Source: an uncultured Candidatus Saccharibacteria bacterium (GTDB lineage Bacteria > Patescibacteriota > Minisyncoccia > Phycocordibacterales > UBA6065). Taken from it: a stretch of DNA of 64,000 bases. Under the pieces are notes generated by a model. That model ran no database searches. It was given only the letters and a program-made list of their open reading frames with translations, and had not been told where the DNA came from. The stretch covers positions 64,518-128,517 of the forward strand of contig CAZBVG010000003.1 in the NCBI GenBank assembly GCA_964495425.1, in the 5' to 3' direction. Below are positions 4,427 through 40,873 of this stretch, one piece after another (within the stretch, counting starts at the first letter, position 1; each line of letters begins with the position of its first letter). The translations under genes and the position numbers were made by a program.

Positions 4427-4437
4427 GTGACGGGTCT

Positions 4438-4466: not shown

Positions 4467-4474
4467 GCGCACGC

Positions 4475-12305: not shown

Positions 12306-12331
12306 AAAGCTCGGGTATACTATCTGGATCG

Positions 12332-12760: not shown

Positions 12761-12819
12761 TGAAACTGCCAGAGAGCCGGCTTCGTATGCTAGAATAGAT
12801 ATCTAGCTTAAATTACATC

Positions 12820-14265
12820 ATGACATTTATAAAACGCCATAAAATAGCCATTGGTATTACCGTTATTATACTTATAATCATTGTTTTTGCTTTTAGTTCT
12901 CGAGGGAATGGCGGAGGTGAAGCAATCATGGTCTCAACCGGAGAACTTGTTCGAACGGTGGAGCTTGCTGGTAAAGTGGTTCCAGCTGAAGATGCTGATC
13001 TTGCCTTTGAAGTGACAGGAACAGTTGCTCGAACCTACAAAAAGGTGGGTGATAAGGTTATGCCTGGCGATGTCATAGTCGAGCTTGATCAATCTGGCAC
13101 ACGAGCTGATTACCTTAAGGCGAGCGCGGATTTGGCGGCTGCGCAAGCAGAGCTTGCGAAACTTTCAGGAGGTAATGATCTTCAGGCAAAGGTAACGAAT
13201 TCAAAAACAAGTGTCACTCAAAATATCATTGATGCGTATACAGATGCTGATGATGCAATTTCAAATAAGATAGATCAGTTTTTTGAAGATGCACGCACGG
13301 CAAATCCTAAAATCGTTTTTTCATTTGATGACTATACGCTTCGAAACAAAATAAATGATACCCGTGTTCGAGTTGGCACCATTCTTACATCATGGAAAGA
13401 AAATGTATCAAAACTCTCTGTGGCCACTTACACAGAGGCGGATCTAGAGTTGGCAAAGGCAAATCTTCGTGAGATTTCTCTTTTCCTCGATGATGTTGCT
13501 CGAGCGGTTAATTCATTTAAACCAAATTCATCAGTAAGTCAGACACTTATAGATAAATATAAGACGGATGTGGCAGCAGCGCGTCAAAACGTAAACGGGG
13601 CAGCGGCAACACTTATTTCAGGTGAGGAGAGCTATTCTGCAACTCTCTCTGATGTTCCTGTACAAGTTGCCCGTGTAGCAGCTGCGGAGGCAAATGTGGC
13701 TACCTATCAGGCTCGTTTGGGCAAGATGACACTTCGATCACCAATTGCAGGAGTTGTTTCAAAACAGGATGCAAAGACCGGTGAATCAGTTTCTGCAAAT
13801 ATGAATCTTGTCTCAGTCATAAGTGCAGATTATAAGCTCGAAGCGTATGTTCCGGAGGTGAGTGTTGCCGGAATCGTTGTCGGCGCAAAGGCGAAAGTTA
13901 CACTCGATGCATATGGCAAGGACATTGTTTTTGATGCAACGATCACTCATGTTGATCCACGAGAAACTATTCGAGATGGAGTTTCGACATATAAAATTGA
14001 ACTCGTATTCAGCACGCCTGATAGTCGAATCCTTTCTGGTTTAACTTCAAATATATCTATTGAGACTTTACGAACAGGGGAGGTGCTCTATATTCCTTCT
14101 CGATCGGTTCTCAATGAGGATGGCAAAAAAACAGTAAAGGTAAAGATTTCAGATAAGGAAGTGATTACAAGGGAAATTGTGACAGGTATCACAGATACCA
14201 AAGGTAATGTTGAGGTCGTGTCTGGTCTTTCAGCAAACGACTCGGTGATAGTCAATCCAAAATAA
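12820..14265 (+). CDS. HlyD-family periplasmic adaptor (membrane fusion protein) of tripartite ABC exporter
   Basis: N-terminal TM, then biotinyl-lipoyl-like motifs (VPGDVIVELD), a long coiled-coil and a C-terminal beta-barrel. First gene of an operon with an FtsX permease and an ABC ATPase. Confidence 0.7.
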   Translation: MTFIKRHKIAIGITVIILIIIVFAFSSRGNGGGEAIMVSTGELVRTVELAGKVVPAEDADLAFEVTGTVARTYKKVGDKVMPGDVIVELDQSGTRADYLKASADLAAAQAELAKLSGGNDLQAKVTNSKTSVTQNIIDAYTDADDAISNKIDQFFEDARTANPKIVFSFDDYTLRNKINDTRVRVGTILTSWKENVSKLSVATYTEADLELAKANLREISLFLDDVARAVNSFKPNSSVSQTLIDKYKTDVAAARQNVNGAAATLISGEESYSATLSDVPVQVARVAAAEANVATYQARLGKMTLRSPIAGVVSKQDAKTGESVSANMNLVSVISADYKLEAYVPEVSVAGIVVGAKAKVTLDAYGKDIVFDATITHVDPRETIRDGVSTYKIELVFSTPDSRILSGLTSNISIETLRTGEVLYIPSRSVLNEDGKKTVKVKISDKEVITREIVTGITDTKGNVEVVSGLSANDSVIVNPK

Positions 14266-14283
14266 TAACTGACATAACTGACG

Positions 14284-15531
14284 ATGCCACAATTTATACG
14301 CATAGGATGGTTTCTCGCGTTTAGGCAGGTGCGCCGCGCGAATAAATGGACCACAGGACTCATCATCTTCGTGATGACCTTAACCTTTCTAAACCTCGTC
14401 GTAGTATCGGGTATCCTTGTGGGTTTGATTGAAGGAGCGGTGGAAGCAAACAAAGAGTTTTACACAAGCGATATTCTTATTACCAAGCTAGATAAGAAAA
14501 ATTATATCGAGCAGACACCAAAGGTGCTGAGCATTATAAATAGTATGCCTGAAGTAGAGACATCATCTGCGCGCTATCTCGAATCAGGTCGTATTGAGGC
14601 AAACTATAAGAGTGCCGCTAAACCAGAAGAGATTGATTCGGCCGGCGGTACACTTGCGGGAATTGATCCAATCAGAGAAAACGAACTCACTGATATATCT
14701 CGATTCGTAGTAGAGGGTCAGTATCTTGAACCTCAGGACTATGATCAAATCCTTATTGGTGGCTATCTTCTCCAAAAATATTTTCCTGTAGAAACTCCTG
14801 CTTTCCCAACCCTCAAAAATGTGAATGTGGGTGATCGTGTGCGTATCACTGTTGGAGATGTGACCCGCGAAGTTACCATCAAGGGTGTGATTTTGTCTAA
14901 AGTTGATGAACTTTCATACCGAATATTCTTTGTTGATCGACAGCTCCGTGATCTCATTGGAAGAACCGATTATAACGTTGATGAAATATCAATAAAGTTG
15001 AAGCCGGGTGCGGATCCCGTATTGGTTAAGGAGGCTCTCATTCGAGCGGGTGTGAGTGAATATGCTCGTGTCCAGACTTTCGAAGATGCTCAGCCTAAAT
15101 TCCTTAAGGATATTAAGGCAACTTTTGCGCTTTTGGGTAACATGATTAGTTCAATTGGTCTTGCTGTGGCTTCTATCACGATATTTATTGTGATTTTCGT
15201 TAATGCAATCACACGACGTAAGTTCATTGGTATTTTGAAGGGTATTGGTATAAGCGGTCGTACCATCGAAGCCTCATATATCTTCCAGTCATTCTTTTAC
15301 GCTATTTGCGGTTCAGGCATCGGTCTCGCTATTTTGTACGGTTTCCTCAAGCCGTATGTGACAGCGCATCCGATTAACTTCCCATTCTCTGATGGTATTC
15401 TTGTGGCACCGCTTTTAAGCACAGGTATTAAGCTTGGTATTCTCGTGATTACGACAATCATCGCAGGTTATATTCCAGCTCGTATGATTGTGCGCAAAAA
15501 TACACTTGATTCGATATTGGGTAGAAATTAA
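14284..15531 (+). CDS. ABC transporter permease, FtsX/MacB-like
   Basis: N-terminal TM, large extracytoplasmic domain, and C-terminal 3-TM FtsX domain (GILKGIGISGRTIEASYIFQSFFY...). Confidence 0.7.
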   Translation: MPQFIRIGWFLAFRQVRRANKWTTGLIIFVMTLTFLNLVVVSGILVGLIEGAVEANKEFYTSDILITKLDKKNYIEQTPKVLSIINSMPEVETSSARYLESGRIEANYKSAAKPEEIDSAGGTLAGIDPIRENELTDISRFVVEGQYLEPQDYDQILIGGYLLQKYFPVETPAFPTLKNVNVGDRVRITVGDVTREVTIKGVILSKVDELSYRIFFVDRQLRDLIGRTDYNVDEISIKLKPGADPVLVKEALIRAGVSEYARVQTFEDAQPKFLKDIKATFALLGNMISSIGLAVASITIFIVIFVNAITRRKFIGILKGIGISGRTIEASYIFQSFFYAICGSGIGLAILYGFLKPYVTAHPINFPFSDGILVAPLLSTGIKLGILVITTIIAGYIPARMIVRKNTLDSILGRN

Positions 15532-29645: not shown

Positions 29646-30359
29646 TTAGGCGACAGCCTTGTAGCGATCCAGAATCGACAACCTAGAGAGCCAAATGCCC
29701 TCGATGAGCTTGATCACACCATCAAGTGACATGTGATCGCTTTCGATAAGGAATGCTTCGGGCACCCGAATGAGCGGGCAACATGCACGCTTCATGTCTC
29801 GTTCATCCCGGAGGAGCAGGCTGGCATACGTTTCCACCATGGTGGTCCGTTCTCCTTTGAGGCGACGCTCCTCATACCGACGAGCCGCACGAACGTTGGC
29901 ATCTGCCGTAAGGTAGATTTTCAATACGGCATCCATAAACACGACGGAAGTCATGTCGCGACCTTCAGCGACAAGTCCAACGTTGTTGATGCAGCTGCGC
30001 TGTAGGCCAGTAACGAGATGTCGGACCTCGGGTATTTCCGAGACGAACCTGACATTGTTATCGATGTGAGCTGTCCGGATTTCGTGCCCAATTCGCCTCC
30101 CGTCGAGGTGGGCAATACTTTTCTTCATCTCGATGCGATGAATATTGTTTTCAGCAATTGTGATGACGGAGCGTGGATCGTGCTCCGGATTGACGCCTTC
30201 ATTGAGACAAAAAAGCGTCATGATCCGAAAAAGTGATCCCGAGTCGAGATGTTCGTATCCGAGCACCTGAGCAAGACCTTTGGCGGTCTGTGACTTTCCA
30301 GAACCAGCAGGTCCATCAATCGCAATGACGCGAACGGGACTGGCAGGATTAGAGTTCAT
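29646..30359 (-). CDS. cmk: Cytidylate kinase
   Basis: IAIDGPAGSGKSQTAKGLAQVLGYEHLDSGSLFR (P-loop plus Cmk signature). Confidence 0.85.
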   Translation of the reverse strand: MNSNPASPVRVIAIDGPAGSGKSQTAKGLAQVLGYEHLDSGSLFRIMTLFCLNEGVNPEHDPRSVITIAENNIHRIEMKKSIAHLDGRRIGHEIRTAHIDNNVRFVSEIPEVRHLVTGLQRSCINNVGLVAEGRDMTSVVFMDAVLKIYLTADANVRAARRYEERRLKGERTTMVETYASLLLRDERDMKRACCPLIRVPEAFLIESDHMSLDGVIKLIEGIWLSRLSILDRYKAVA

Positions 30360-32299: not shown

Positions 32300-32809
32300 A
32301 TGAGAAAAATTACTCTTATTAAGGTTCTCTTTGTTGTCACATTGCTTGTTTGCCTCATGCCGTCCATTTCTTTTGCGCAAAATATTCCTACTAACCCTTC
32401 CGTAAGAACCGGGGCAGATGGTGGAACTGGTAGTAACGATCCAGTTGATGTCGATTTTCAGTTTGTGACCTGTTCAGGAGTGGATGATCCAAGAACTCCA
32501 CAAAAGGAGAGGGAGTGTACATTTGAAGATATTATTCTTACTGCACGCAGAATTATTTATTTTGCGCTCTTTATGATTACGCCTATTCTTGTGGCGATGC
32601 TTGTATATACGGGATTTAAGTACATGACCGCAGGAGGTGATGTAAACCTAATTGCTGATGCTAAACGAATGCTTAAACCTGTTATCTATGGACTAATTCT
32701 GGTATTTGCAGCATGGCTTATTGTGTATACCCTATTGGGAAAGTTGCTCGCATTAAATATAAATGATGTATCAAAAGACTCCATTGTTCCGTCATCAATT
32801 AGATATTAA
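32300..32809 (+). CDS. VirB2/TrbC-like (T4SS-pilin-like) two-helix small secreted membrane protein, paralogue 1
   Basis: Signal peptide (LLVCLMPSISFAQ), loop, helix 1, YTGFKYMTAGGD, then AKRMLKPVIYGLILVFAAWLIVYTLL. Same architecture as the four paralogues downstream. Confidence 0.45.
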   Translation: MRKITLIKVLFVVTLLVCLMPSISFAQNIPTNPSVRTGADGGTGSNDPVDVDFQFVTCSGVDDPRTPQKERECTFEDIILTARRIIYFALFMITPILVAMLVYTGFKYMTAGGDVNLIADAKRMLKPVIYGLILVFAAWLIVYTLLGKLLALNINDVSKDSIVPSSIRY

Positions 32810-32813
32810 AAAT

Positions 32814-33227
32814 ATGAAAAATAAATTTTTCGTTACCTTGTGCTTACTTGCAGTGTTTCTTCCTTCTATTGTTTTTGCGCAGGGTGGAAGTAGTCAGGGT
32901 GGTGCGGGCGGAAGTTCACAAGGTGGTGCGGGCGGAAGTAGTCAGCCGGTTAATGTGGGCATACCAAATCCTCTTGGTGAGATAGATAGTTTGGCCGAGC
33001 TAGTTTTTAAGATAGTTGAGTTTGTTATAAGTTTTAGTTACGTAATCATCGCTTTCTTTATTATTCTTTCTGGTTTTAAATTTGTATTAGCTCAAGGGAA
33101 TGAGGAAAAACTTACAGAGGCAAAACAGATGTTGAAATATACAATTATTGGAGCATTTCTTGTGATAGGTGCACAAATAATTGTTGAGGTGCTAAAAGAC
33201 GTGTTGACTCAAATTGCCTCCTCATAA
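32814..33227 (+). CDS. T4SS-pilin-like two-helix protein, paralogue 2 (with GGSSQ/GGAGG tandem repeat)
   Basis: Signal peptide and (GGSSQGGAG)x2.5 repeat, then helix 1 IIAFFIILSGFKFVLAQGNEEKLTEAKQMLKYTIIGAFLVIGAQIIVEVL. Confidence 0.45.
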   Translation: MKNKFFVTLCLLAVFLPSIVFAQGGSSQGGAGGSSQGGAGGSSQPVNVGIPNPLGEIDSLAELVFKIVEFVISFSYVIIAFFIILSGFKFVLAQGNEEKLTEAKQMLKYTIIGAFLVIGAQIIVEVLKDVLTQIASS

Positions 33228-33231
33228 ATAA

Positions 33232-33265
33232 AAAAGTCCGGCTGTGAGGCCGGACTTCGCAATAA
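33232..33265. terminator. Bidirectional terminator (gtccggc-tgtgag-gccggac)
   Basis: 7-bp GC stem flanked by A6 and T-rich sequence, between paralogue 2 (+) and the minus-strand coiled-coil gene. Confidence 0.55.
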
Positions 33266-33271
33266 AGAACT

Positions 33272-34345
33272 TCAGAGGTTACTACCCAATGTGTATCTTG
33301 GTGAGAGTTTTGAGACCACCATTGGTTCGAATTTTGATACAAACTGTACCTGCGTGTTTGCACGCATGTGTGCTCGAGTGATCGGGCGGTCGACGATGCG
33401 AATCTTGTTGTCATCAACCAACTGTATCTCAACACCCGGTTTTTCGTCCCACTCGACTTGGTTTCTCAGTACATCCATAATTGGATATTTCATTGAAACC
33501 TCGCCGGCTGCATACTGATATCCTGTCCACTTACCACGTGAGTCAACTTTTACGATCGCGACTTTTGGTCCTGATACTGGAGTTGGAGGAGTGGAAACGG
33601 TAGGGGTAGACGCGATTGCCACAGAAGCTTTCTTTTCGGAAAGTTTCTGTGATAGATTCGCGATCTGTTCAGCCAAATCTTTTCGGCTGGATGACTGTGT
33701 GCCCAATTCCGTCTTCACTTCTTTGATGAGATTTTCGACACCGCTGTCGATATCATCCTGACGGAGACTGATACTTGTTAGTTTGTTTTCAAGTACTGCG
33801 ATCTTGCCGCATAGTTCGAGAACAGTTTTCTTGTGGAGATCAAGCTCAGTTGTGGTCTCCGAGTCTGATTTCCTTGAGCGAGCAATCATCATCTCCAGTC
33901 TGTCGACCTGATGTACTAGGTCGACATACTTTTGTTGTGAGTCACTGAGACTAGTGTCCACAACAGTGTTGTCAGAGTTCCAGAGCTGAGAAATAAATTT
34001 CCTACCCGTGGATTTTTCTGCAATGAGTATGATGATCACCACACCCGCGGCGATGAGAAAGAAGTTGAAAACTTGTAGAGTCAACGAGCGCTTCGGTGCC
34101 ACCGCCGATGTTATCGGGGTGGATGACGAAACCTTGTGGCTCTTTGTCGTCGTCTTCTTGGACATCTTCGTGGCCCGGGTGGCATTTTTCTTTGCCTCAC
34201 GACCAGTATAGTAGTTACGAATTCTTGTGGACATCCAGATCCAACCTTTCATCCACACACCGGGTCCTTTTGTGGGTGGCGGGGGCGGATTACTTGATGG
34301 TGGGGTATTCGCTGAAGAAGCTGTCGGTTTTGCAGGAGTTGTCAT
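33272..34345 (-). CDS. Membrane-anchored coiled-coil protein with Pro/Thr-rich N-terminus and C-terminal beta domain (hypothetical)
   Basis: 357 aa. Pro-rich N-terminus (PPSSNPPPPPTKGP), a TM (FNFFLIAAGVVIIILIA), long heptad-like segments, and a C-terminal beta-rich domain. Embedded in the pilin-like cluster. Confidence 0.4.
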   Translation of the reverse strand: MTTPAKPTASSANTPPSSNPPPPPTKGPGVWMKGWIWMSTRIRNYYTGREAKKNATRATKMSKKTTTKSHKVSSSTPITSAVAPKRSLTLQVFNFFLIAAGVVIIILIAEKSTGRKFISQLWNSDNTVVDTSLSDSQQKYVDLVHQVDRLEMMIARSRKSDSETTTELDLHKKTVLELCGKIAVLENKLTSISLRQDDIDSGVENLIKEVKTELGTQSSSRKDLAEQIANLSQKLSEKKASVAIASTPTVSTPPTPVSGPKVAIVKVDSRGKWTGYQYAAGEVSMKYPIMDVLRNQVEWDEKPGVEIQLVDDNKIRIVDRPITRAHMRANTQVQFVSKFEPMVVSKLSPRYTLGSNL

Positions 34346-34572
34346 TGAGAACCTTTCTGTTTGTTGTTGATTGTTGGGTGTATATCAAAGTACCTATTTA
34401 AAGTATTACATAAAATTATAGATTTGTCAATATATAAAGAGGTATGAAAAGCTCTTAGTACGGCCGTATAAATGGTCGGAGTGTCGTGTCTGTGGGTTGT
34501 ATTTGTTGTATAATGAATGAAAGCAACTTTTGAGAACCTATCAGAGGTGCTATTTATTACATAAGTAAACAT

Positions 34573-35022
34573 ATGAAAAGGAAATTAACGTTTGGGAAAG
34601 TACTAACTTTTACGGTGGCACTTTGCCTTATGGCGGCATTCGTAGCACCGATTGTCGTAAGCGCAGCACCAGCAACAAATACACAAGCTGGCGCGTGTGG
34701 AAATCTTACTAACACAGGTTTGAAGGGTGTTGTCGGCTGTATTATTGAGATTCTAAATACAGTTGTAGGTCTTCTAATTGCGGGTGGAGTTGTGTATACA
34801 GTCTATGGTGCTTTTCAAATGGTTCAAAGCGAGGAGAAGAGAGATGAAGGAAAGCAAAGAATTTACCACGGTATTATAGGTCTTTTCATAATGGTTTCAA
34901 TTTGGGGGTTGGTGAATATTCTTACTTCAACATTTAATTTGATTGGTACTCCTGTTGCCGCACCTGTTATTCAGGCACCCGCTGGAACAGGTGATGTGCC
35001 AGGTTTTGACGGTTCGTCCTAG
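34573..35022 (+). CDS. T4SS-pilin-like two-helix protein, paralogue 3
   Basis: Signal peptide AAFVAPIVVSAAPA, Cys pair, then LLIAGGVVYTVYGAFQMVQSEEKRDEGKQRIYHGIIGLFIMVSIWGLVNILTSTF. Confidence 0.45.
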   Translation: MKRKLTFGKVLTFTVALCLMAAFVAPIVVSAAPATNTQAGACGNLTNTGLKGVVGCIIEILNTVVGLLIAGGVVYTVYGAFQMVQSEEKRDEGKQRIYHGIIGLFIMVSIWGLVNILTSTFNLIGTPVAAPVIQAPAGTGDVPGFDGSS

Positions 35023-35120
35023 TTTTATCCCCATTGCCCTGTATCTATCGATATTTCCTGGTATAATAGGGAAGTACAGGCATTTAACAGCATTATTTAA
35101 GAGTTTTTTAGTAACTTAGT

Positions 35121-35489
35121 ATGAAAAAATTAGTCTATACCGCAGCTTTGTCACTTGCGCTTCCTCTTACGGCAGCAGCACAGGTTTCAAATCTCGAAGA
35201 CGTATTTCAGTTTATTAACAACCTCCTCAATACACTTCTTCCGCTTATCATCGCGGCAGCAGTTGTATACTTCATTTATGGTATCGCTCGCTACGTTATG
35301 GCAGGTGATGAGGATGCAAAGGCAGCAGCAAAGGACAAGATCATCTACGGTGTGATCGGCCTCTTTGTGATGGTATCTGTATGGGGACTCGTAAACATCC
35401 TTACAAATACTTTCTTCGGCGGTAGCGTTACGAATGCTGTGCCTTCTAACGTAAACGATCAGATTCCTGACGTAGACGTTGACCTCTAA
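35121..35489 (+). CDS. T4SS-pilin-like two-helix protein, paralogue 4
   Basis: Signal peptide ALPLTAAAQ, then LIIAAAVVYFIYGIARYVMAGDEDAKAAAKDKIIYGVIGLFVMVSVWGLVNILTNTF. Confidence 0.45.
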   Translation: MKKLVYTAALSLALPLTAAAQVSNLEDVFQFINNLLNTLLPLIIAAAVVYFIYGIARYVMAGDEDAKAAAKDKIIYGVIGLFVMVSVWGLVNILTNTFFGGSVTNAVPSNVNDQIPDVDVDL

Positions 35490-35500
35490 TCTTTAGAGAG

Positions 35501-35743
35501 ATGAATATTCCGGCGGTCCAAAAATTCTTTGAGCTTGTAGTCAATCCAATTGTACAATTGATGTTTGCGCTTGCTGTGGTTTATTTCATCTACGGAGTAT
35601 TCACATATATTCGTAAGTCAGATGATTCAGATGGAAGACTTACGGGAGGAAGACATATTCTCTGGTCTACCGTCGGACTCTTTATAATGGTATCTGTCTG
35701 GGGCATAATCGCTGTACTCAGAAGCACTATCGGAGTCAATTAA
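35501..35743 (+). CDS. T4SS-pilin-like two-helix protein, paralogue 5 (no cleavable signal peptide)
   Basis: 80 aa: LMFALAVVYFIYGVFTYIRKSDDSDGRLTGGRHILWSTVGLFIMVSVWGIIAVL. Shares the GLF(I/V)MVS(I/V)WG motif. Confidence 0.4.
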   Translation: MNIPAVQKFFELVVNPIVQLMFALAVVYFIYGVFTYIRKSDDSDGRLTGGRHILWSTVGLFIMVSVWGIIAVLRSTIGVN

Positions 35744-35810
35744 ATCACTATAGAAAAGAAAAAAGGAGTCGGGACGTATGTCTCGACTCCTTTGCTATTG
35801 AAAGAACACT

Positions 35811-36317
35811 CTAATGCCACCAATTTATGATCCACTCTTTTGCCTCTGTCGTTTCGCGGGTTACCCGAAACGATAGATACTCTGGCTTATAAGCCCCCCA
35901 GTCCGTTAAGTGAGGAGTCTCTTCGACCAGGTTACCCTGGCCGTCGTTTACTTTTATCACTTTTCCCGCGCGATTGTAGATCTTGAACCGAAGGCCGTCG
36001 AGATCGTTTAGGAAGCGAATCTTTCGGCCACGAATCGGTATCATTTCCACGGCTTCACCCGGCTTGATGATATTAGGTCTTGCTGCCTGGTAAAGTGTTC
36101 TGGTCGTTTGGACCGGATCACCTACATAGACATGTCCTTGTGACGACGTGGTAGGGGGGTCGCCATTAACTGCGGTCTCACTCCACTTCGTTGCCAGCAA
36201 TCTGCCCGCCATGTTAAACAGCAGAAGGATTGCGAAGAGGACTGCGAGCGTTTTCCCGAGCTTGTTAAGGCCCGTGAAATCGATTTTTCCTCTGACGTGA
36301 CCTGTAGTAGTGCTCAC
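35811..36317 (-). CDS. Membrane-anchored beta-rich protein, possible NfeD-like partner of the upstream SPFH-like gene
   Basis: N-terminal TM (LAVLFAILLLFNMAG) and a C-terminal beta-strand-rich (OB-like) domain. Overlaps the SPFH-like gene stop by 4 nt, which suggests an operon. Confidence 0.3.
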   Translation of the reverse strand: MSTTTGHVRGKIDFTGLNKLGKTLAVLFAILLLFNMAGRLLATKWSETAVNGDPPTTSSQGHVYVGDPVQTTRTLYQAARPNIIKPGEAVEMIPIRGRKIRFLNDLDGLRFKIYNRAGKVIKVNDGQGNLVEETPHLTDWGAYKPEYLSFRVTRETTEAKEWIINWWH

Positions 36318-37435
36318 TTTGATTTTCCTTGATTTTTTGAGTTATCACGTTGGCCGAACACAGCGGTTAGGCCACCGACCATTTTGTCTCCTTCACCGAC
36401 GCCGTTCACGATGATTTCTTGGCGCGTGAGGTTGCCTTCCTGTGCCTGAACCATACGGAGCGCTTCGGTTGGATCGAGATCCTTACCCATGGCCTTGAAC
36501 TGGGCAACGAGCTTTACAGCGCGCTTTCCCTGTTCCTCCATGTCCCGTTTTTGAGCCTTTGATTTTGCCGCTTCCTTCATCTCCTCTTCCATTGCGCGCA
36601 AAATTTCGGTATTGGTTGGCAGGATTTCCGTATTCAATACATCAATAACCTTGACCCCTGATTCCGTTTGGAATTCGCGGTCGATAGCCTTTGAAATATT
36701 GAAATCTTTAGGCATCTCGTTGCTAGCATCTTCGGCGTTACCTGCGACTGCATCAATTCCATCTTTCTCTTCGAGAGATATAACACGCTCACGCATGTCT
36801 ACTGACTCTTGATCCATAAAGGGCCAAGGAAGCCAGTGGATACCTTCATCAAGAAAGATTCGTTGACGTCTGCCGAGGAGCGTTAAGACTCCCATATGGG
36901 CAATGTCTATCCTGTTGAAACTTGCGATAAACATTCCTATTGCGATTCCCATCACACAAAGTGATGGAAAAAAGGGTAGGTCGAGCACTACGAATGGAAT
37001 TACTATGCCCATAAAAAGGGTAAAAATAATTCCGAGTAGAATCGACTGCCAAGGCTTGATCGAAGTTTTGACTTCGTTCAGCGTACCCTTACGCAGGCAT
37101 TCGGCAACCACGCTACTCATTTCGAGCTTAAGACCCATGAGGGCATTGAGCTCAATTTTTGAAGCGAGATGGCGCGAGACAGCAGATGAGAGTGCCACGA
37201 TAGTTTTTTCGACAATCAATGACCCTCCCATGTTGAGATACGTATATGGGTCAACGACCCTGTATCGTATCGCTTGTTGGATTTTGACCTGGGCGGAGCC
37301 GAGATCTTCGTAAGGATTTCCTTTCTTTCCAGACTTATCCTTCGAACCCTTCGAAGGCGGGACGGGTGTGCTAGGCACACTTGATTGAGGACGAGGTTGT
37401 GCCTTCGTCGCAGGCACGGTTTTGGTTTTAGCCAT
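36314..37435 (-). CDS. SPFH/band-7-like membrane protein with atypical domain order
   Basis: Band-7-like signature AIRYRVVDPYTYL lies N-terminal to three or four TM helices. A second SPFH-like stretch (RIFLDEGIHWLPWPFMDQESVDMRERVISLEEKDGIDAV) and an E/K-rich coiled-coil follow. Confidence 0.35.
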   Translation of the reverse strand: MAKTKTVPATKAQPRPQSSVPSTPVPPSKGSKDKSGKKGNPYEDLGSAQVKIQQAIRYRVVDPYTYLNMGGSLIVEKTIVALSSAVSRHLASKIELNALMGLKLEMSSVVAECLRKGTLNEVKTSIKPWQSILLGIIFTLFMGIVIPFVVLDLPFFPSLCVMGIAIGMFIASFNRIDIAHMGVLTLLGRRQRIFLDEGIHWLPWPFMDQESVDMRERVISLEEKDGIDAVAGNAEDASNEMPKDFNISKAIDREFQTESGVKVIDVLNTEILPTNTEILRAMEEEMKEAAKSKAQKRDMEEQGKRAVKLVAQFKAMGKDLDPTEALRMVQAQEGNLTRQEIIVNGVGEGDKMVGGLTAVFGQRDNSKNQGKSK

Positions 37436-37577
37436 TGTTAGTGTGGTTTCAAAAAACTTGATTTACAGGGAAAGACGACCGTCCTTCCAATTACTGTATT
37501 CTATTATCTATTATACTACATTTTATATAAAAGTCAATAATCGCTTTATTTTTAAATACGGCTTGGTTAAGAGCTTT

Positions 37578-37612
37578 AATACAATAAAAAAAGAACTGTG
37601 TGGTACACAGTT
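37578..37612 (-). terminator. Terminator hairpin (aagaactgtgt-ggta-cacagttctt)
   Basis: 11-bp perfect stem with A/T runs, downstream of the minus-strand receiver gene stop at 37627. Confidence 0.6.
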
Positions 37613-37626
37613 CTTGTAAACGAATG

Positions 37627-37986
37627 CTAGTTCTTGGCGAACCTGGTGATGGTTTCGCGGATCTCCTCCATGTAAAACGGCTTCTGGATAATTTTCTTCA
37701 CATTAGTCCAGCCGATTTCATCGGCGACGGACTTGACGTTTCCACCGCTCATGATGACAATGGGGAGGTCGGGGTGGGTGCGTCGTGCTTGGTGGGCGAA
37801 ATCCACCCCGCTCATGCCGGCCATGATGTAGTCGGTAAAGACCAGATCAAGGTTCTCGACACTAAGCAGGCTCAAGCCGTCACTTCCGTTGCTTGCTTCG
37901 GAGACGGAGTGTCCGTCCCTTCGCAGCATGAGTGCAAGTGTGGTTCTCACTGATTCGTCTTCTTCAATGATGAGTATGTTTTTCAT
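37627..37986 (-). CDS. Stand-alone response-regulator receiver domain (CheY-like)
   Basis: MKNILIIEEDESVR...LDLVFTDYIMAGMSG (phospho-acceptor Asp), PIVIMSGG and a conserved Lys region. 119 aa with no output domain. GC-rich coding sequence. Confidence 0.7.
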   Translation of the reverse strand: MKNILIIEEDESVRTTLALMLRRDGHSVSEASNGSDGLSLLSVENLDLVFTDYIMAGMSGVDFAHQARRTHPDLPIVIMSGGNVKSVADEIGWTNVKKIIQKPFYMEEIRETITRFAKN

Positions 37987-38036
37987 AGATGTGCAACTTG
38001 TGAGGACATTACCATATTTTTCGATTAAGTCAAGTA

Positions 38037-38063
38037 AAAGCCGTCACGTGATGACGGCTTTTG
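38037..38063 (-). terminator. Terminator hairpin after tRNA-Leu (aaaagccgtcacgtgatgacggctttt)
   Basis: Perfect palindrome gccgtcacgtgatgacggc flanked by A4 and T4. Confidence 0.6.
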
Positions 38064-38068
38064 GACTG

Positions 38069-38150
38069 TGGGCACGAAGAGACTCGAACTCTTAATCCGT
38101 GAGGAACTAGTTCCTAAGACTAGCGCGTATACCAATTCCGCCACGTGCCC
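38069..38150 (-). tRNA. tRNA-Leu (anticodon TAG), long variable arm
   Basis: Reverse complement GGGCACG-TG-GCG-GAATTGGTATA-CGC-G-CTAGT-CTTAGGA-ACTAG-TTCCTCACGGATT-AAGAG-TTCGAGT-CTCTT-CGTGCCC-A. Confidence 0.8.
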
Positions 38151-38290
38151 AATAGATGATAGGATAGCATTAGAGCCTGGAATTATGAAGCCTTTGTCCG
38201 TGTGCTCCTATTGTTTTATTTGTATATTTGTGTTATTACACGAACGGGGGTATTTCGTAATAACGTACAGAAACAACAATAACGGTAGAA

Positions 38291-38719
38291 ATGAAACAAC
38301 ATATCGTAAGAGCGTTTTCAGTGGTTTTTATCCTGTTTGCATTTGCGCAGACTGTTTTCGGTCAAGAGGTTTTCAAGCTCAGAATTGGCGAGGAGTTAAT
38401 CCTTGTCGCAAGCACAGATGGAACACCGCCACTTACCTTTGTTTGGTATAAGGACGGGGTGGATACAGGTGTTACAACTGCTAAGTATGTGGTCAACTCG
38501 GTGACACCTCAGGATGCCGGAACGTACTCGGTTAAGGCAAGTAATTCCGCTGGTTCAGCTATCTCTCCGACAGTAATTTGTCGAATGGTTGTTTTGCCTA
38601 AAAAAGCAGTGGACACCTACGAGGTGCTGCTCAGTTGGCTTGAGTTAAGGAAAGATTTTGCACGGGCAAGTCTATGGAGACGGCCGCTCATAGCTAGAAC
38701 ACAAGGAGGGCGGATATGA
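38291..38719 (+). CDS. Secreted protein with eukaryote-like immunoglobulin I-set domain
   Basis: Signal peptide (AFSVVFILFAFAQTVFG). ILVASTDGTPPLTFVWYKDGVDTGVTTAKYVVNSVTPQDAGTYSVKASNSAGSAISPTVI matches the I-set pattern (WxKDG ... DxGxYxC-like) with the Cys positions substituted. Overlaps the next gene by 4 nt. Confidence 0.5.
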   Translation: MKQHIVRAFSVVFILFAFAQTVFGQEVFKLRIGEELILVASTDGTPPLTFVWYKDGVDTGVTTAKYVVNSVTPQDAGTYSVKASNSAGSAISPTVICRMVVLPKKAVDTYEVLLSWLELRKDFARASLWRRPLIARTQGGRI

Positions 38720-39354
38720 ATAAAGTCTATTTATCTGTCTTCCTTTTTATTGTTACGCCTGCATTCGCGATGACGTATCGGATTATTAACCTGGCGGTGC
38801 AACAGGTGTCAGACACAAAGGTTGTGCTTACATGCACGGTACCCAAGCCAAAAAGTGGGACTGCGCCTGTAACACAAATCGAGCTACGTATCGATGATGC
38901 TGCAATTACGGCGAAGAATTATCATCAAGCAACGATAGTTCAGGTGGTGAATAATCCCGGAGTTGCGTCTGCTCCTGTTACATTTACGGTGGCTGGTCTT
39001 CAGTCAAACACTACATACTATTTCGCGTGCAGAGCTTTTGATACGGAATGGAATGAGGTGTCGAATTATTCGCTCGTTAAAACAAGTCCGCCCAGCAAAA
39101 AGACTCAGGTCAACAAGACCATACGAGTAAACCTGAATTATAGGGAGGATGATACTGGGGAAATACCTGATGCGGTAGTCGTGTTTCACGGCTCCACGAG
39201 GGGACTTATGGAAAAACCACTCGTAGTAAAGGGTAACGTCCGCTATGTGGATATCACCGGCTTAAAGCAAGGTGACGTTCATTATTGGCAGGTTGTTACG
39301 GTGAGCACCGATGGTGAGACCAACGAAAATCCCGTGCGATCTGACAGTAGATAA
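38716..39354 (+). CDS. Secreted fibronectin type III-like domain protein
   Basis: Signal peptide (LSVFLFIVTPAFA). FN3-like strand pattern (VVLTCTVPKP...LQSNTTYYFACRAFD). A second beta-sandwich-like C-terminal half. Confidence 0.4.
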   Translation: MNKVYLSVFLFIVTPAFAMTYRIINLAVQQVSDTKVVLTCTVPKPKSGTAPVTQIELRIDDAAITAKNYHQATIVQVVNNPGVASAPVTFTVAGLQSNTTYYFACRAFDTEWNEVSNYSLVKTSPPSKKTQVNKTIRVNLNYREDDTGEIPDAVVVFHGSTRGLMEKPLVVKGNVRYVDITGLKQGDVHYWQVVTVSTDGETNENPVRSDSR

Positions 39355-39374
39355 GTTGCAATAACACATTGCGA

Positions 39375-39410
39375 GCCGCTTGGTGAAGTAATTCACTAAG
39401 CGGTTTTTTT
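39375..39410 (+). terminator. Rho-independent terminator (ccgcttggtgaa-gtaa-ttcactaagcgg + T9)
   Basis: 12-bp stem with one mismatch, followed by tttttttta. Confidence 0.65.
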
Positions 39411-39512
39411 TATTTCGACGCTTTTTAATTGCTCGATCTGTTGTACGACGTCATACATAATTTAACTAGACAATCTGGTTATTTTCACTAGCATAGGGAC
39501 AAACCGTGTTCC

Positions 39513-40016
39513 ATGAAATTCAAAACCTATACAGAGAACGATGAAAGTCTGATGTCTCAGGATGAGAAAGATCTTCTCGTGCGTATCAGAGGGCTGATGG
39601 ACCATTTTCCTGAAGGTCTTGGCTACGACATGGGCGATAAAGGCAGATTCGTGTCCTTGTCGTGCCATATGGTGGTGCGGGCTATGGCTCGCGTCATCGG
39701 CAGGGAGGTTAAAGTGATCGACGGCTACTTTTTCCCGGTCTATCAGCACAGCTGGCTCAGGACAAAGCAAGGTAATGTCATCGATGTGTTTCCGGTAGGT
39801 ATTGTTGGGGGTCCGATCTTTGTGAGTAAAATCGTTGCCGACAGAAAGTGTAAGATTGTATTCAAGGACCTTTTCACCGAAAGGGAGAAGAGGCAGGACG
39901 TTGGGTTGTATCTTCGTAAAAGGCTTCCCAAGGATACTCGCGCTTCGTTCAAGGATAAGAGATTTGTTAGGACTGTCGAATTGATCGTGCGCTCGATGCG
40001 ATCCGCATTTGTCTGA
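39513..40016 (+). CDS. Hypothetical protein
   Basis: 167-aa ORF with no recognisable motif, followed by GC hairpin gcgtcccgcgaggggcgc + T5 at 40020-40050. Confidence 0.35.
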   Translation: MKFKTYTENDESLMSQDEKDLLVRIRGLMDHFPEGLGYDMGDKGRFVSLSCHMVVRAMARVIGREVKVIDGYFFPVYQHSWLRTKQGNVIDVFPVGIVGGPIFVSKIVADRKCKIVFKDLFTEREKRQDVGLYLRKRLPKDTRASFKDKRFVRTVELIVRSMRSAFV

Positions 40017-40188
40017 CTGCCGTCTAAGCGTCCCGCGAGGGGCGCTTTTTATTACACGAGCGAGGTTTCCATGTTGTCTATTTTGTCCAATCTCAGAACC
40101 AGTTTTGTTGGTGTCCTGAAATTAAAAACCTCCAATAGCATTAGAGCTCGGAGGTTTTAAGGCCTTATATCTGGGCGGTAGCAGGGTG

Positions 40189-40458
40189 TCAGCTTCCCAC
40201 ATAGATCGAACATTTCTTGCCGAGCACTTCCGGCTCTCCTTCGATTTTCTCGGTGCCGGAAGGTTTGGGCGAGTCTTTCTCGACGATGTGGATTTCAAAC
40301 GCTTTGATTGCACCAAACAGCGGATTGTATGTGTAGAGGCGAACCTCATTATTCTCGACTCGCTCGTAGTGGACAGAGCCTCGGACGGAAAGTTCTGCGC
40401 GGAAAACGGCGGGCAAAGTGCGCACCGGACAATACAGTGGGTGGTGGGTTCTAGACAT
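40189..40458 (-). CDS. Hypothetical small protein (90 aa)
   Basis: ORF-track 174-aa ORF trimmed to MSRTHHPLYCPV... because its extension crosses two tRNA genes. Confidence 0.25.
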   Translation of the reverse strand: MSRTHHPLYCPVRTLPAVFRAELSVRGSVHYERVENNEVRLYTYNPLFGAIKAFEIHIVEKDSPKPSGTEKIEGEPEVLGKKCSIYVGS

Positions 40459-40517
40459 AAATAAAAAGAAGTTTATACAAACCTTACATGAGAGTTCGTT
40501 TGTGTCAACAAACGCAA

Positions 40518-40552
40518 AAAGCCGAGAGAACTGATTCTCTCGGCTTTTTGAT
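40518..40552 (-). terminator. Terminator after the tRNA cluster (gccgagagaa-ctga-ttctctcggc + T-run)
   Basis: 10-bp perfect stem immediately 3' of tRNA-Lys on the minus strand. Confidence 0.6.
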
Positions 40553-40559
40553 CCGCTTG

Positions 40560-40632
40560 TCCGCCCTGTAGGAATCGAACCTACGACCTTCTCCTTAAGA
40601 GGGAGCAGCTCTACCAACTGAGCTAAGGGCGG
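40560..40632 (-). tRNA. tRNA-Lys (anticodon CTT)
   Basis: Reverse complement CCGCCCT-TA-GCTC-AGTTGGTA-GAGC-T-GCTCC-CTCTTAA-GGAGA-AGGTC-GTAGG-TTCGATT-CCTAC-AGGGCGG-A. Shares a G27.A43 mismatch with tRNA-Arg. Unusual C1-G72 pair. Confidence 0.75.
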
Positions 40633-40685
40633 ATATAAATTTGCTTCGAAAATGTAACAGAAAATTGGGTAATTGGCAATTTTCC

Positions 40686-40776
40686 TGGTGCCCAAGGTGG
40701 GAATCGAACCCACATGCCCCTATTAGAGGGCGAAGGATTTTAAGTCCTCTGCGTCTACCAATTCCGCCACCTGGGC
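40686..40776 (-). tRNA. tRNA-Leu (anticodon TAA), CCA encoded
   Basis: Reverse complement GCCCAGG-TG-GCG-GAATTGGTAGA-CGC-A-GAGGA-CTTAAAA-TCCTT + 19-nt variable arm + GTGGG-TTCGATT-CCCAC-CTTGGGC-A-CCA. Confidence 0.8.
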
Positions 40777-40801
40777 AAAAGAAACACGGAAGCGTTTCTT
40801 G

Positions 40802-40873
40802 AGGCCACGGCGAGAATCGAACTCGCGCATAGAGATTTTGCAGATCTCCGAATTACCACTTTTCTACGTGGCC
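40802..40873 (-). tRNA. tRNA-Cys (anticodon GCA)
   Basis: Reverse complement GGCCACG-TA-GAA-AAGTGGTAA-TTC-G-GAGAT-CTGCAAA-ATCTC-TATGC-GCGAG-TTCGATT-CTCGC-CGTGGCC-T, with the U73 discriminator typical of tRNA-Cys. Confidence 0.8.

Follow-up and report, generated by a model that had tools for sequence, protein, structure and literature searches.

The window (the whole 64,000-nucleotide stretch of DNA analyzed) carries between 35738 and 40556 seven protein-coding genes and a tRNA-Leu gene, with T4SS_pilin (PF18895) genes on the left side and a conserved tRNA array on the right (40559..40873, − strand). This array anchors the variable region on its right side and consists of tRNA-Lys(ctt)/(CUU) (40559-40632), tRNA-Leu(taa)/(UAA) (40686-40776) and tRNA-Cys(GCA) (40801-40873), all on the − strand, and rbfA and infB lie past it. 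The gene order given in the original prediction matches the ORFs, domains, tRNAs and terminators found, including tRNA-Leu(tag)/(UAG) (38068-38150, − strand) with its own terminator hairpin directly 3′ of the gene (38035..38062, − strand; −18.4 kcal/mol, z = −5.6). A further terminator lies 3′ of tRNA-Lys (40515..40550, − strand; −30.8 kcal/mol, z = −7.1), and the terminator hairpins of the region, that of tRNA-Leu included, have folding z scores of −2.3 to −7.1.

The three leftmost genes are all on the − strand. A 119-aa stand-alone receiver of the CheY/CpdR type (37627..37986; Pfam Response_reg, E=8e-21) has residues E9/D10, D52, S80 and K102 all present in its translation, shows the highest GC3 of the region (0.69) and has a terminator hairpin 3′ of it (37591..37615, − strand; −13.4 kcal/mol, z = −5.6). 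In NCBIfam it comes closest to CpdR (2e-20), a match under the cut-off of that model (72.8 bits vs 180). Response_reg is its only domain and there is no kinase domain within ±10 kb, which agrees with the earlier description of a receiver lacking both partner kinase and output domain. A promoter-like site (37510..37537, − strand; 11/12 consensus matches) is located upstream of the gene for a 373-aa protein (36314..37435), which overlaps by 4 nt the gene for a 168-aa protein (35811..36317; GC3 0.56); both products are membrane proteins. Owing to this overlap, the two genes are probably translationally coupled and the 168-aa protein is likely a partner subunit. It features an N-terminal hydrophobic helix (residues 16-34) and a beta-rich C-terminal part, and is 23-26% identical (E=3e-9) to a same-position 144-aa protein of relative L014. 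The label “NfeD-like” that had been attached to it is unsupported, as no NfeD or other model matched in Pfam, NCBIfam, PHROGs or PDB sequences.

The 373-aa protein alone misses Pfam Band_7. An HMM of 37 collinear relatives, with Band_7 mapped in family members, matches it in three non-collinear pieces (iE 2e-9, 8e-32 and 1e-19). The central part of the SPFH domain corresponds to residues 47-112 and its start to residues 172-236; between them lies a two-helix membrane hairpin (residues 128-171), and residues 247-373 correspond to the end of the domain together with a long coiled-coil helix. The top 28 Foldseek matches of the AF2 model (pLDDT 74) are all SPFH proteins. The SPFH identity and REARRANGEMENT of the protein are thus backed by profile search, AF2 model and Foldseek; it is a true SPFH relative in which a central segment has moved ahead of the membrane anchor. 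The predicted SPFH-like character was therefore borne out, though only via deep profile and fold searches, and no description of such a rearranged SPFH protein was found in the literature searched.

On the other side of tRNA-Leu(UAG), two + strand genes that overlap by 4 nt encode proteins with signal-peptide-like N-terminal hydrophobic segments, which confirms the predicted two-gene operon of secreted Ig-like and FN3-like proteins. The 142-aa protein (38291..38719) contains one Ig-like domain (Pfam I-set/Ig_3/Ig_2, E=4e-8) and also matches PHROGs Hoc-like Ig domains. The 212-aa protein (38716..39354) has an N-terminal FN3-like domain in Pfam (fn3 25.3 bits, cut-off 25; Pur_ac_phosph_N 30.6, cut-off 30), and its C-terminal half, judged by eye, appears to be a second beta-rich half; just two clusters of homologues of this protein turned up among 5.8e9 proteins. 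A strong terminator (39373..39406, + strand; −22.9 kcal/mol) ends the operon. The two secreted proteins may be adhesin-like. Four of the seven products are membrane-bound or secreted, in line with the surface and secreted functions predicted; the proposed role of these products in host-cell attachment is speculation.

The two hypothetical ORFs that had been noted are also present, between the operon and tRNA-Lys. The first encodes a 167-aa orphan protein (39513..40016, + strand; GC3 0.58) with a C51-H52...H79...D91 pattern that is invariant across its three known sequences; no family, PDB or viral match was obtained, and a terminator lies 3′ of the gene (40026..40047, + strand). The second is an 89-aa orphan ORF (40189..40458, − strand) that matched nothing in the family libraries searched and has no counterpart among the fetched loci. 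Its orientation is favored only by a U-run hairpin at which its transcription would end (40122..40160, − strand), and an antisense 92-aa ORF (40186-40464, + strand) is a possible alternative. A 174-aa ORF in the frame of the 89-aa ORF, which is a called gene on the source contig, runs across two tRNA genes, so that its N-terminal part is spurious.

Synteny with relatives divides the region into three tracts with distinct histories. In the sister genome (infB 84% identical, pairing at 100% bootstrap), homology as detected by blastn ends at 35737, resumes at 38067, ends at 39416 and resumes at 40557. Tract 1 (35738..38066) lacks DNA homology to the sister up to the very 3′ end of tRNA-Leu(tag), where the sliding identity climbs from 0.35 to 0.97 (at 38068). 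Tract 2 (38067..39416), which contains tRNA-Leu(tag) and the Ig-FN3 operon, is shared, and its homology stops just 3′ of the operon terminator. Tract 3 (39417..40556) is replaced in the sister by three unrelated ORFs. Both replaced tracts end exactly at a tRNA 3′ end, that of tRNA-Leu(tag) for tract 1 and that of tRNA-Lys for tract 3. The DNA identity of tract 2 is 84.4%, compared with 72-79% in flanking core genes; its non-coding part is 82-89% identical, and the Ig and FN3 proteins are 79% and 83% identical to those of the sister, the latter also matching in position. At third positions the identity is 70% in tract 2 versus 48% in the core (Fisher p=3e-15). Given that dS is about 0.58 (0.57-0.59 for the Ig and FN3 genes) and ranges from 1.6 to saturated in infB, nifS, clpB, SBP and rbfA, tract 2 was, as judged from sequence divergence, exchanged recently.

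These tracts also differ in composition. The marked rise in GC that had been predicted is overstated for overall content, where it is small, and the true signal lies at synonymous sites. The GC of the region is 46.75% versus 44.05% in same-size windows (SD 1.74), 8.6% of which equal or exceed it; tracts 1 and 3 reach 47.1% and 47.4%, and local 300-nt peaks inside the region reach 0.52-0.55. The GC maximum of the window is at 1-6 kb, outside the region. The GC3 of the seven genes, 0.43-0.69, clearly departs from the background median of 0.383 (n=57; Mann-Whitney p=2.3e-5), and their synonymous codon-usage z scores range from −1.0 to −3.8. GC3 is highest in the replaced tracts (0.49-0.69), lower in the shared tract (0.43-0.46) and 0.38 in the background. 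The core gene cmk is also GC3-rich (0.56 here, 0.59 in the sister), as are slot 1 genes, those between tRNA-Leu(UAG) and the pilin genes, in two further low-GC relatives; for this reason, some gene-specific compositional effect could lie behind the raised GC3.

Nine related Patescibacteria genomes were compared, eight of which were readable at this position, and all comparisons draw on about ten MAG contigs. In each of the eight, tRNA-Leu(tag) is a core gene with the tRNA-Lys array on one side and the pilin genes on the other. The interval that spans from its 3′ end to the last pilin gene (slot 1) is likewise occupied in all eight, adjoining a VirB2-like pilin array, with unrelated SPFH types and sizes of 2.1-4.2 kb; relatives thus do not pass directly from the pilin cluster to rbfA-infB, as had been expected of them. 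Slot 1 always encodes two proteins in succession, one of 345-537 aa and one of 138-257 aa, and a receiver-like gene precedes this pair in every relative except the sister, whose slot 1 holds a different cassette. The interval between tRNA-Lys and tRNA-Leu(UAG) (slot 2) measures 2408 bp here, 58 bp in L026, 295 bp in L025, 677 bp in L002 (with LAGLIDADG), 1.3 kb in L018, 3.3 kb in L006 (a SET domain and four others) and about 3.7 kb in the sister. Outside L026 and L025 the cargo of the relatives is unrelated, and this interval is a true insertion hot spot.

Sharing of individual genes is patchy, the 373-aa, 167-aa and Ig/FN3 proteins each having homologues in a different set of relatives. Homologues of the 373-aa protein occur in L014, L025, L026, L016 and L017 and are absent from the sister, those of the Ig and FN3 proteins are restricted to the sister among the relatives, and of the few homologues of the 167-aa protein one lies in the same slot of L018, a non-sister relative and the sole fetched one that has it. 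On a four-protein core tree, rearranged, collinear and third SPFH types are interspersed, which requires at least two to three replacements. The rearranged type could nevertheless be ancestral in this genome because it is also found in a basal lineage. SPFH identities of 49, 41 and 27% are set against core identities of 67, 76 and 71%, a mismatch that could reflect rate or GC-driven amino-acid shifts instead of transfer.

In relatives, the corresponding array contains genes for a serine recombinase, homing endonucleases and a reverse transcriptase. In L003, the serine recombinase, a large one, directly adjoins the 3′ end of tRNA-Lys, and its full-length comparison with the window's own recombinase at tRNA-Arg gives 32% identity; the other mobile genes are HNH (L018), LAGLIDADG (L002, L003) and RVT_1 (L026). 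A search for integrase remnants or direct repeats at the tRNA-Leu and tRNA-Lys ends had been proposed, and it returned neither: no intact or remnant integrase gene lies in the region, and neither of the two tRNA 3′ ends recurs as a direct repeat (att) within the 64 kb. A 13-nt direct repeat, the only one in the region, is at chance level, matched or exceeded in 18% of shuffles.

The original prediction of an acquired island at tRNA genes stands in part. An evolutionary history different from that of the flanks and the location at tRNA genes follow from slot synteny, breakpoints and codon usage, but the three tracts and the filled slot 1 do not allow a single block; 35738-40556 is a patchwork adjoining four conserved tRNA genes and not a single imported island. 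Integration by a site-specific recombinase of one horizontally acquired ~4.8-kb island, through which the seven genes and tRNA-Leu(UAG) would have arrived at once, would account for the flanking tRNA genes, for atypical codon usage in all seven genes and for variable tracts that both abut tRNA 3′ ends, and tRNA-targeting serine recombinases do exist in the clade and in the window. The presence of tRNA-Leu(UAG) and a filled slot 1 in 8/8 readable relatives, three histories relative to the sister, the absence of any recombinase gene or fragment from the region, intergenic gaps that are all <200 bp, and the results of the repeat searches make such an event very improbable, and on sequence evidence the synteny already contradicts it. 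A chimeric contig, in which DNA of a higher-GC relative was joined into a lower-GC genome by misassembly or misbinning, is more improbable still: the data are metagenome-assembled and related populations of differing GC coexist in such samples, but the exact RbfA protein recurs with unchanged neighbors on six contigs, five of which measure 50-200 kb, the sister shows the same backbone on three independently assembled contigs, and the tract boundaries all coincide with biological landmarks, for example tRNA 3′ ends and terminators.

Purely vertical descent of an ancient, ever-present and fast-evolving membrane and surface locus, with slot 2 explained by differential loss and GC3 by gene-specific effects, is unlikely but deserves more weight than either of these. 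It would fit the slot 1 architecture kept everywhere, the rearranged SPFH type in the basal lineage, the GC3-rich slot 1 genes of several low-GC genomes together with cmk, and the very fast evolution of the neighboring pilins and coiled-coil gene (32-63% identity to the sister). However, rearranged and collinear SPFH proteins are not interconvertible by point divergence since the sister split, while pilins adjoining SPFH genes are still 55-89% identical. The Ig-FN3 dS is three to four times below that of the core, which runs counter to fast divergence, homology breaks off abruptly at tRNA ends, and slot 2 shrinks to merely 58 bp (L026) or 295 bp (L025) and houses selfish elements in other relatives.

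The explanation that we consider reasonably probable is a recombination and insertion hot spot with two adjacent variable slots on a conserved backbone of infB, rbfA, tRNA-Cys, tRNA-Leu(UAA), tRNA-Lys, tRNA-Leu(UAG) and the VirB2-like pilin array; the content of the slots would have been turned over through exchange among related Patescibacteria. Slot 1 would always be filled with a functionally equivalent cassette of an SPFH membrane scaffold, a small partner with a single membrane pass encoded by an overlapping gene and, in most cases, a stand-alone receiver, with differing and mutually unrecognizable SPFH types in different lineages. Slot 2 is an insertion site, empty in some relatives and taken up here by the secreted Ig and FN3 two-gene operon and the two orphan ORFs. 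The most likely route would be homologous recombination, with the tRNA and pilin genes conserved on either side as anchors, and mobile elements targeting tRNA 3′ ends may provide an additional one. The raised GC3 would fit source DNA from 53-58% GC members of the same clade; corresponding genes in high-GC relatives have a GC3 of 0.7-0.8. Conserved adjacency suggests that the cassette would organize or regulate membrane complexes tied to the adjoining pilin array, with the receiver acting as a signal input. Of this account, the anatomy, synteny, breakpoints, dS contrast and SPFH rearrangement are shown by the sequences, and the donor, the mechanism of recombination and the function in the cell are inferred.

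The locus resembles tRNA-associated islands and islets in that variable DNA starts exactly at the tRNA-Lys and tRNA-Leu(UAG) 3′ ends, codon usage is atypical, the Lys to Leu(UAG) site is empty in some relatives and a large serine recombinase is found at the same tRNA-Lys in relatives. It differs in the absence of an integrase, att duplication and mobility genes from the region, in the very small size of its tracts (1.1-2.4 kb) and in having one slot that is never empty and behaves as an allelic cassette, not as an insertion. The receiver shares with the single-domain response regulators CheY, CpdR and DivK its length of 119 aa, the receiver-only architecture and the full phospho-acceptor pocket, but scores under equivalog cut-offs and has no kinase, chemotaxis or cell-cycle genes nearby. 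Small secreted Ig and FN3 beta-sandwich proteins are reminiscent of surface decoration proteins (Hoc-like, BIg), and the Ig domain of the window matches PHROGs Hoc-like families; the pair differs from these in that the searches gave no anchor motif, phage context or viral relatives, and it is confined to a handful of Patescibacteria contigs.

The predicted fold of the 373-aa protein is shared with stomatin, prohibitin and the products of SPFH/NfeD operons (E. coli QmcA-YbbJ, PDB 8z5g; HflK/C, 7vhq), as are the membrane anchor, the long C-terminal coiled-coil helix and the presence of a small membrane protein in the operon. In contrast to these systems, its central segment (Band_7 ~55-128) is N-terminal to the hairpin and not inside the domain, the protein fails Band_7 on its own, the 168-aa partner has no detectable NfeD similarity, and this SPFH family has been seen only in Patescibacteria and only adjoining pilin arrays. 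Such VirB2-like arrays, 441 of which have been described in Patescibacteria, are interrupted by a non-pilin gene (PMC12102498). No description of an SPFH/partner/receiver cassette beside the array or of tRNA-anchored variable slots was found in that report, and a term search of its main text returned neither “SPFH” nor “response regulator”; in the window, no virB4 was seen within 10 kb on each side. The left neighbor of the region agrees with the described arrays, comprising five PF18895 pilin genes with a non-pilin gene interrupting them and highly divergent paralogues.

The interval flagged in the original prediction (35800–40560) lies in a Patescibacteria (Paceibacteria/Taylorbacteria-like) chromosome segment of approximately 44% GC; the public genomes nearest to it are MAGs that carry the labels Saccharibacteria, Parcubacteria, Paceibacterota and Taylorbacteria. 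By ARAGORN and Rfam, tRNA-Leu(tag) lies at 38068–38150 and tRNA-Lys(ctt), tRNA-Leu(taa) and tRNA-Cys at 40559–40873, all on the minus strand, and an Rfam scan of 35.0–41.5 kb detected nothing beyond these four tRNAs. The interval is bordered on the right by rbfA and infB and on the left by five PF18895 (VirB2-like) pilin genes, which are interrupted by a coiled-coil gene. The predicted ORF content and order were confirmed: a pair of 168-aa and 373-aa proteins (both minus strand), a receiver, an Ig/FN3 pair and further ORFs. A stable hairpin and U-run were found at the end of every transcription unit, including tRNA-Leu(tag), which does carry its own terminator as proposed.

Nine related genomes were gathered via infB and homologues of the 373-aa, 167-aa and FN3 proteins. 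All share one backbone, in the order nifS, DUF4446, infB, rbfA, tRNA-Cys, tRNA-Leu(taa), tRNA-Lys, a gap, tRNA-Leu(tag), a second gap, the pilin array, SBP, methyltransferase and gyrA, which indicates that tRNA-Leu(tag) is a core gene rather than island cargo. The gap between tRNA-Leu(tag) and the last pilin gene (slot 1) spans 2.1–4.2 kb and is occupied in 8/8 relatives where it is readable, at odds with the expectation that relatives would run directly from the pilin cluster to rbfA-infB. Its content in these eight is always a 345–537-aa protein followed by a 138–257-aa membrane protein. A receiver-like gene precedes the pair in all readable relatives but the sister genome, and a Taylorbacteria relative (contig L025) has two tandem stand-alone receiver genes (4911–5720) before its version of the 373-aa gene; the receiver is thus a variable accessory of the cassette. 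The types of slot 1 content are interspersed on the core tree, so that at least two or three replacements are required; in the four-protein NJ tree, the key node for the direction of change between this genome and its sister has 50% support.

The gap between tRNA-Lys and tRNA-Leu(tag) (slot 2) can be empty, measuring 58 bp and 295 bp in two related contigs (L026 and L025, respectively). Elsewhere it holds a LAGLIDADG gene (677 bp; L002), a 173-aa ORF with a homologue of the 167-aa gene (1.3 kb; L018), a SET-domain gene with four others (3.3 kb; L006), or Ig, FN3 and three unrelated ORFs (about 3.7 kb; sister genome). In the window it covers 2.4 kb, with the Ig and FN3 genes, the 167-aa ORF and an ORF of approximately 90 aa.

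The sister genome (GCA_964368835; infB 84% identical, pairing with 100% bootstrap in the four-protein tree) revealed that the interval is a mosaic, with tract boundaries defined by blastn and a sliding identity plot. Homology to the sister is absent from 35738–38066, where the sister instead carries a 218-aa and 392-aa pair without a receiver, and again from 39417–40556, resuming at 40557. Between them, 38067–39416 is 84.4% identical, which exceeds the 72–79% of the flanking core DNA. The homology breaks at 38066/38067 and 40556/40557 coincide with the 3′ ends of tRNA-Leu(tag) and tRNA-Lys, and therefore both non-homologous tracts stop exactly at a tRNA 3′ end. Synonymous divergence (dS) from the sister is 0.59 for Ig and 0.57 for FN3, as against 1.6 for infB, 1.7 for DUF4446, 2.2 for clpB and 2.5 for nifS among core genes, with SBP and rbfA saturated; third-position identity is 70% in Ig-FN3 versus 48% (Fisher p=3e-15), and the stretch of non-coding DNA that separates tRNA-Leu from the Ig gene is 82–89% identical. 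The Ig-FN3 tract was therefore shared well after the two genomes diverged. For each of the other modules, the nearest homologue lies in a different non-sister relative; 373-aa homologues occur in L014 (49%), L016, L017, L025 and L026, and a 167-aa homologue occurs in L018 (50%).

The pilin array itself (32300–35743) includes a gene (35121–35489) whose dS from the sister is 0.75 and whose product keeps 89% of its amino acids, flanked on both sides by pilins with saturated synonymous sites and 63% and 82% amino-acid identity; this suggests that gene-sized recombination tracts also exist within the array. The 357-aa protein that interrupts the array (33272–34345, minus strand) is rich in Pro and Thr at its N-terminus and contains one membrane helix and a coiled coil; it has a GC3 of 0.49 and 32% identity to its sister counterpart. 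Its weak IcmG/DotF-like match (E=0.002) is far under the cut-off.

Base composition had been put forward as the mark of an acquired island, with markedly higher GC. For total GC this was overstated: the interval has 46.75% against 44.05 ± 1.74% for same-size windows, a rise of 2.7 points, and 8.6% of such windows are as GC-rich or richer, all of them situated at 1–6 kb. At synonymous sites the shift is real. The seven genes have GC3 values of 0.56, 0.49, 0.69, 0.43, 0.46, 0.58 and 0.60, whereas the median of the 57 background genes is 0.383 (Mann–Whitney p=2.3e-5), and codon usage is atypical, with a synonymous codon-usage z < −2 in six of the seven. GC3 is raised most in the two tracts without homology to the sister genome, and clade members at 53–58% GC have genes at the slot positions with a GC3 of 0.7–0.8. 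The raised tracts fit a derivation from these GC-rich members of the same clade, a reading weakened by GC3-rich core genes such as cytidylate kinase. The latter (cmk; 29646–30359, minus strand) has a GC3 of 0.56 in the window and 0.59 in the sister, with 60% identity between the two; hence, in this lineage, a raised GC3 also occurs outside the accessory genes. Elsewhere in the window, a 304-aa protein (1948–2862, plus strand) with a C-terminal VPDSG-CTERM sorting motif (PF18205, E=2e-6) and a GC3 of 0.52 is another surface protein of atypical composition.

The reading as a single horizontally acquired, tRNA-integrated island stands in part: it applies to the segment at 38.15–40.56 kb, but is wrong for the left half and as regards one acquired unit, since the three tracts differ in their homology to the sister genome and tRNA-Leu(tag) is core in the relatives. 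The integrase remnants and flanking repeats sought as signs of integration were not found: none of the ORFs scanned in the region matches a recombinase family, where the intergenic gaps are shorter than 200 bp, and the last 23–24 nt of tRNA-Leu or tRNA-Lys do not recur in the 64 kb, with up to 3 mismatches allowed. Repeat families that were detected reflect tRNA-to-tRNA similarity or chance. A 13-nt direct repeat, ATAGCATTAGAGC, has copies at 38164 and 40135, on either side of the Ig, FN3 and 167-aa genes, and was considered as a candidate att site, but it is unremarkable, because 18% of shuffles contain an equal or longer repeat; the bracketed unit was also rejected as an att element since L018 has the 167-aa gene without Ig/FN3. 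Taken together, the flagged interval would most likely be a hot spot for recombination and insertion whose tRNA/pilin backbone is conserved. It would comprise an always-filled slot for the cassette of SPFH scaffold, partner and receiver; a tract, exchanged recently, that carries tRNA-Leu together with the operon for the secreted Ig and FN3 proteins; and a small insertion slot adjoining tRNA-Lys. As a whole, the original prediction was thus borne out in part. As a genomic island, the locus is ordinary: a small variable locus at tRNA genes without mobility machinery.

Across this clade, the tRNA array serves generally as a place where selfish elements land. In the related contig L003, a 548-aa large serine recombinase adjoins the tRNA-Lys 3′ end, and a LAGLIDADG gene accompanies it in the array (elements at 12029–12631 and 12950–14596). 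Other relatives have an HNH endonuclease (L018, 10792–11355) or a LAGLIDADG endonuclease (L002, about 12320–12987) in the array, or a reverse transcriptase (RVT_1) after tRNA-Leu(tag) (L026, 4048–4974). The window also encodes a 503-aa large serine recombinase at 4475–5986 (plus strand) with Resolvase, Recombinase and Zn_ribbon_recom domains, 58.6% GC and a GC3 of 0.71, which shares 32% identity with the L003 enzyme along its entire length and whose 3′ end overlaps tRNA-Arg(cct) (5946–6020, minus strand). Together with an ORF at 3888–4388 (minus strand), it lies between tRNA-Phe and tRNA-Arg in the GC-richest part of the window. This stretch (3888–6020) looks like a real integrase-bearing tRNA island, a textbook case.

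The 373-aa protein in slot 1 had been labelled SPFH-like, which profile and fold searches support, but it does not have the collinear order of an anchor followed by an uninterrupted SPFH domain. Pfam PF01145 (Band_7) does not match it at E≤10, and family members give partial matches (P0059, 9e-11; P0011, 2e-6; P0018, 1e-6). A search of 5.8 billion clustered proteins gave only three close homologues; with a profile run against 1.84 billion representatives, 12 full-length and about 150 distant relatives were recovered. The distant relatives sampled are ordinary Band_7/SPFH proteins, retrieved by the family profile at 1e-10 to 1e-21. In about 45 ordinary relatives, the family profile is matched in the order 105–205, then 25–100, then 220–340. 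Conversely, an HMM built from 37 collinear relatives scores the window protein at E=3e-56 and matches 14/14 family members in three non-collinear pieces, always in the order central segment, anchor with start, end. In the window protein, these are residues 47–112 (HMM 140–204, iE 2e-9), 122–236 (HMM 15–138, iE 8e-32) and 247–373 (HMM 198–320, iE 1e-19). Pfam mapping agrees, with the N-terminal piece corresponding to Band_7 55–128 and the piece past the membrane helices to Band_7 2–49. An artificial 373-aa construct in which the segment was moved back still gave no Pfam Band_7 match; the relocation was demonstrated by the family-level HMMs instead.

AlphaFold2 with four sequences gave an unusable model (pLDDT 48), and with thirteen sequences a model with pLDDT 74. 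The latter predicts a β-strand and helices at 48–113, two membrane helices at 128–171, a β-sheet at 173–273 and a 40-residue helix at 276–315, in keeping with an SPFH α/β fold and the long coiled-coil helix that comes after it. A Foldseek search against the PDB returned SPFH proteins for all of the top 28 matches (prohibitin, HflK/C, stomatin, erlin, QmcA, flotillin; best E=4e-5), and a PDB sequence search with the 373-aa family gave only chance-level matches. These fold hits and the non-collinear HMM matches indicate that the SPFH label is right, yet that the protein is a segment-relocated variant. Relocation looks topologically possible, since a hairpin would keep the N-terminus on the SPFH-domain side of the membrane; most collinear relatives have two N-terminal hydrophobic segments in a crude hydropathy scan.

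Named members of the 373-aa family come from Taylorbacteria and "Patescibacteria group" MAGs. The gene stands beside the pilin array in every contig long enough to be read (the window, L014, L025 and L026/L027), and in the short contigs L016 and L017 only the genes adjoining the homologue are visible. The searches have brought to light an SPFH family that is restricted to Patescibacteria, has one domain segment relocated and is encoded beside the pilin array. In the literature library that was searched, neither a permuted SPFH domain nor an SPFH protein at a Patescibacteria pilin locus is described. SPFH-like proteins also take the equivalent position in L002, L006, L018 and L020, with Band_7 matches of 3e-6 in L006 and 0.017 in L018, and with the L020 protein 21% identical to those of L002 and L006. 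The 373-aa family HMM matches none of the positional equivalents, and profile–profile comparison with the L002 and L006 proteins revealed no similarity, so the slot 1 types are not recognisably one family. Slot 1 is therefore filled by functional analogues from different SPFH lineages, as its occupants are SPFH-like but unrecognisable to the rearranged profile.

The 168-aa partner gene overlaps the end of the SPFH gene by 4 nt, a layout shared with L014, L025 and L026, and its product has a single N-terminal hydrophobic helix (residues 16–34) and homologues of 144 aa and 167 aa at the same position in L014 and L026. Its proposed identity as an NfeD-like protein was not upheld, with no match to PF01957 in Pfam (E≤0.1), to NCBIfam or to PDB sequences (E≤10); it resembles NfeD in operon position only. 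Pfam, PHROGs, NCBIfam and PADLOC scans of the 168-, 373-, 167- and 89/92-aa ORFs returned nothing informative, and PDB sequence searches with the 168-aa protein and the 167-aa family gave chance-level matches only. The receiver, in contrast, was assigned correctly as a stand-alone protein: PF00072 (Response_reg, E=8e-21) covers residues 4–113 of 119, the pocket residues read from the translation are E9/D10, D52, S80 and K102, the protein has no output domain, and the 10 kb flanking it on each side contain no kinase domain.

The two-gene operon of secreted Ig-like and FN3-like proteins also holds. The 142-aa Ig protein scores 34.0 bits for Ig_3 (cut-off 30), the 212-aa FN3 protein scores a borderline 25.3 for fn3 (cut-off 25) and 30.6 for Pur_ac_phosph_N (cut-off 30), and both have signal-peptide-like N-terminal hydrophobic segments (residues 5–23 and 6–24, respectively). 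The two genes overlap by 4 nt. The products look like secreted putative binding modules. A homologous pair (53% identity), followed by a 211-aa ORF, occurs in two more distant contigs (L023, 128–2783; L024, 43–2298), and L023 also has a gene for bAvd, a diversity-generating retroelement accessory protein, after the pair. Scans of viral contigs with the 167-aa and FN3 proteins found no relatives, and scans of metagenome contigs were likewise empty. The 167-aa orphan family (39513–40016, plus strand), without a family, PDB or viral match, has Cys51-His52, His79 and Asp91 invariant in 3/3 known members, a pattern reminiscent of a small thiol hydrolase. A 174-aa ORF called on the public source contig (40189–40713, minus strand) runs across tRNA-Lys into tRNA-Leu(taa), so at most the 89 aa that follow the internal start codon (ATG, 40458) can be real; a 92-aa ORF on the opposite strand is just as plausible.

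The constant adjacency of cassette and pilin array suggests that the cassette is linked with the pilin surface apparatus. A bolder and rather doubtful proposal is that the SPFH-partner-receiver cassette is an exchangeable specificity or regulatory module of a Patescibacteria pilus or type IV secretion-like surface apparatus, swapped together with the adhesin-like Ig/FN3 operon through recombination at the flanking tRNA and pilin genes and acting as surface or host-range variation, the version here having its SPFH central segment transposed across the membrane anchor. If this were true, an SPFH cage could assemble from a discontinuous domain. The moderate interest of the locus rests on the rearranged SPFH family and on the clean evidence for mosaic exchange at a surface locus. 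To our knowledge, recombination and accessory-genome dynamics of Patescibacteria are poorly documented, and the mosaic tracts, sharp tRNA-anchored breakpoints and 3–4-fold dS contrast provide a clean worked example of gene flow in this group. The affected genes, which adjoin the pilin array, are for surface and secreted proteins, and one VirB2-like pilin array is cited in a survey as essential in a cultivated Saccharibacteria strain (PMC12102498). The rearranged SPFH family also hints that SPFH scaffolds may be linked to pilus or secretion machinery in Patescibacteria. SPFH-partner pairs organise membrane complexes, and the structures of SPFH cages (HflK/C, stomatin, prohibitin, flotillin) are being actively studied; a natural SPFH variant with a rearranged order would put ideas on the folding and assembly of the domain to the test.
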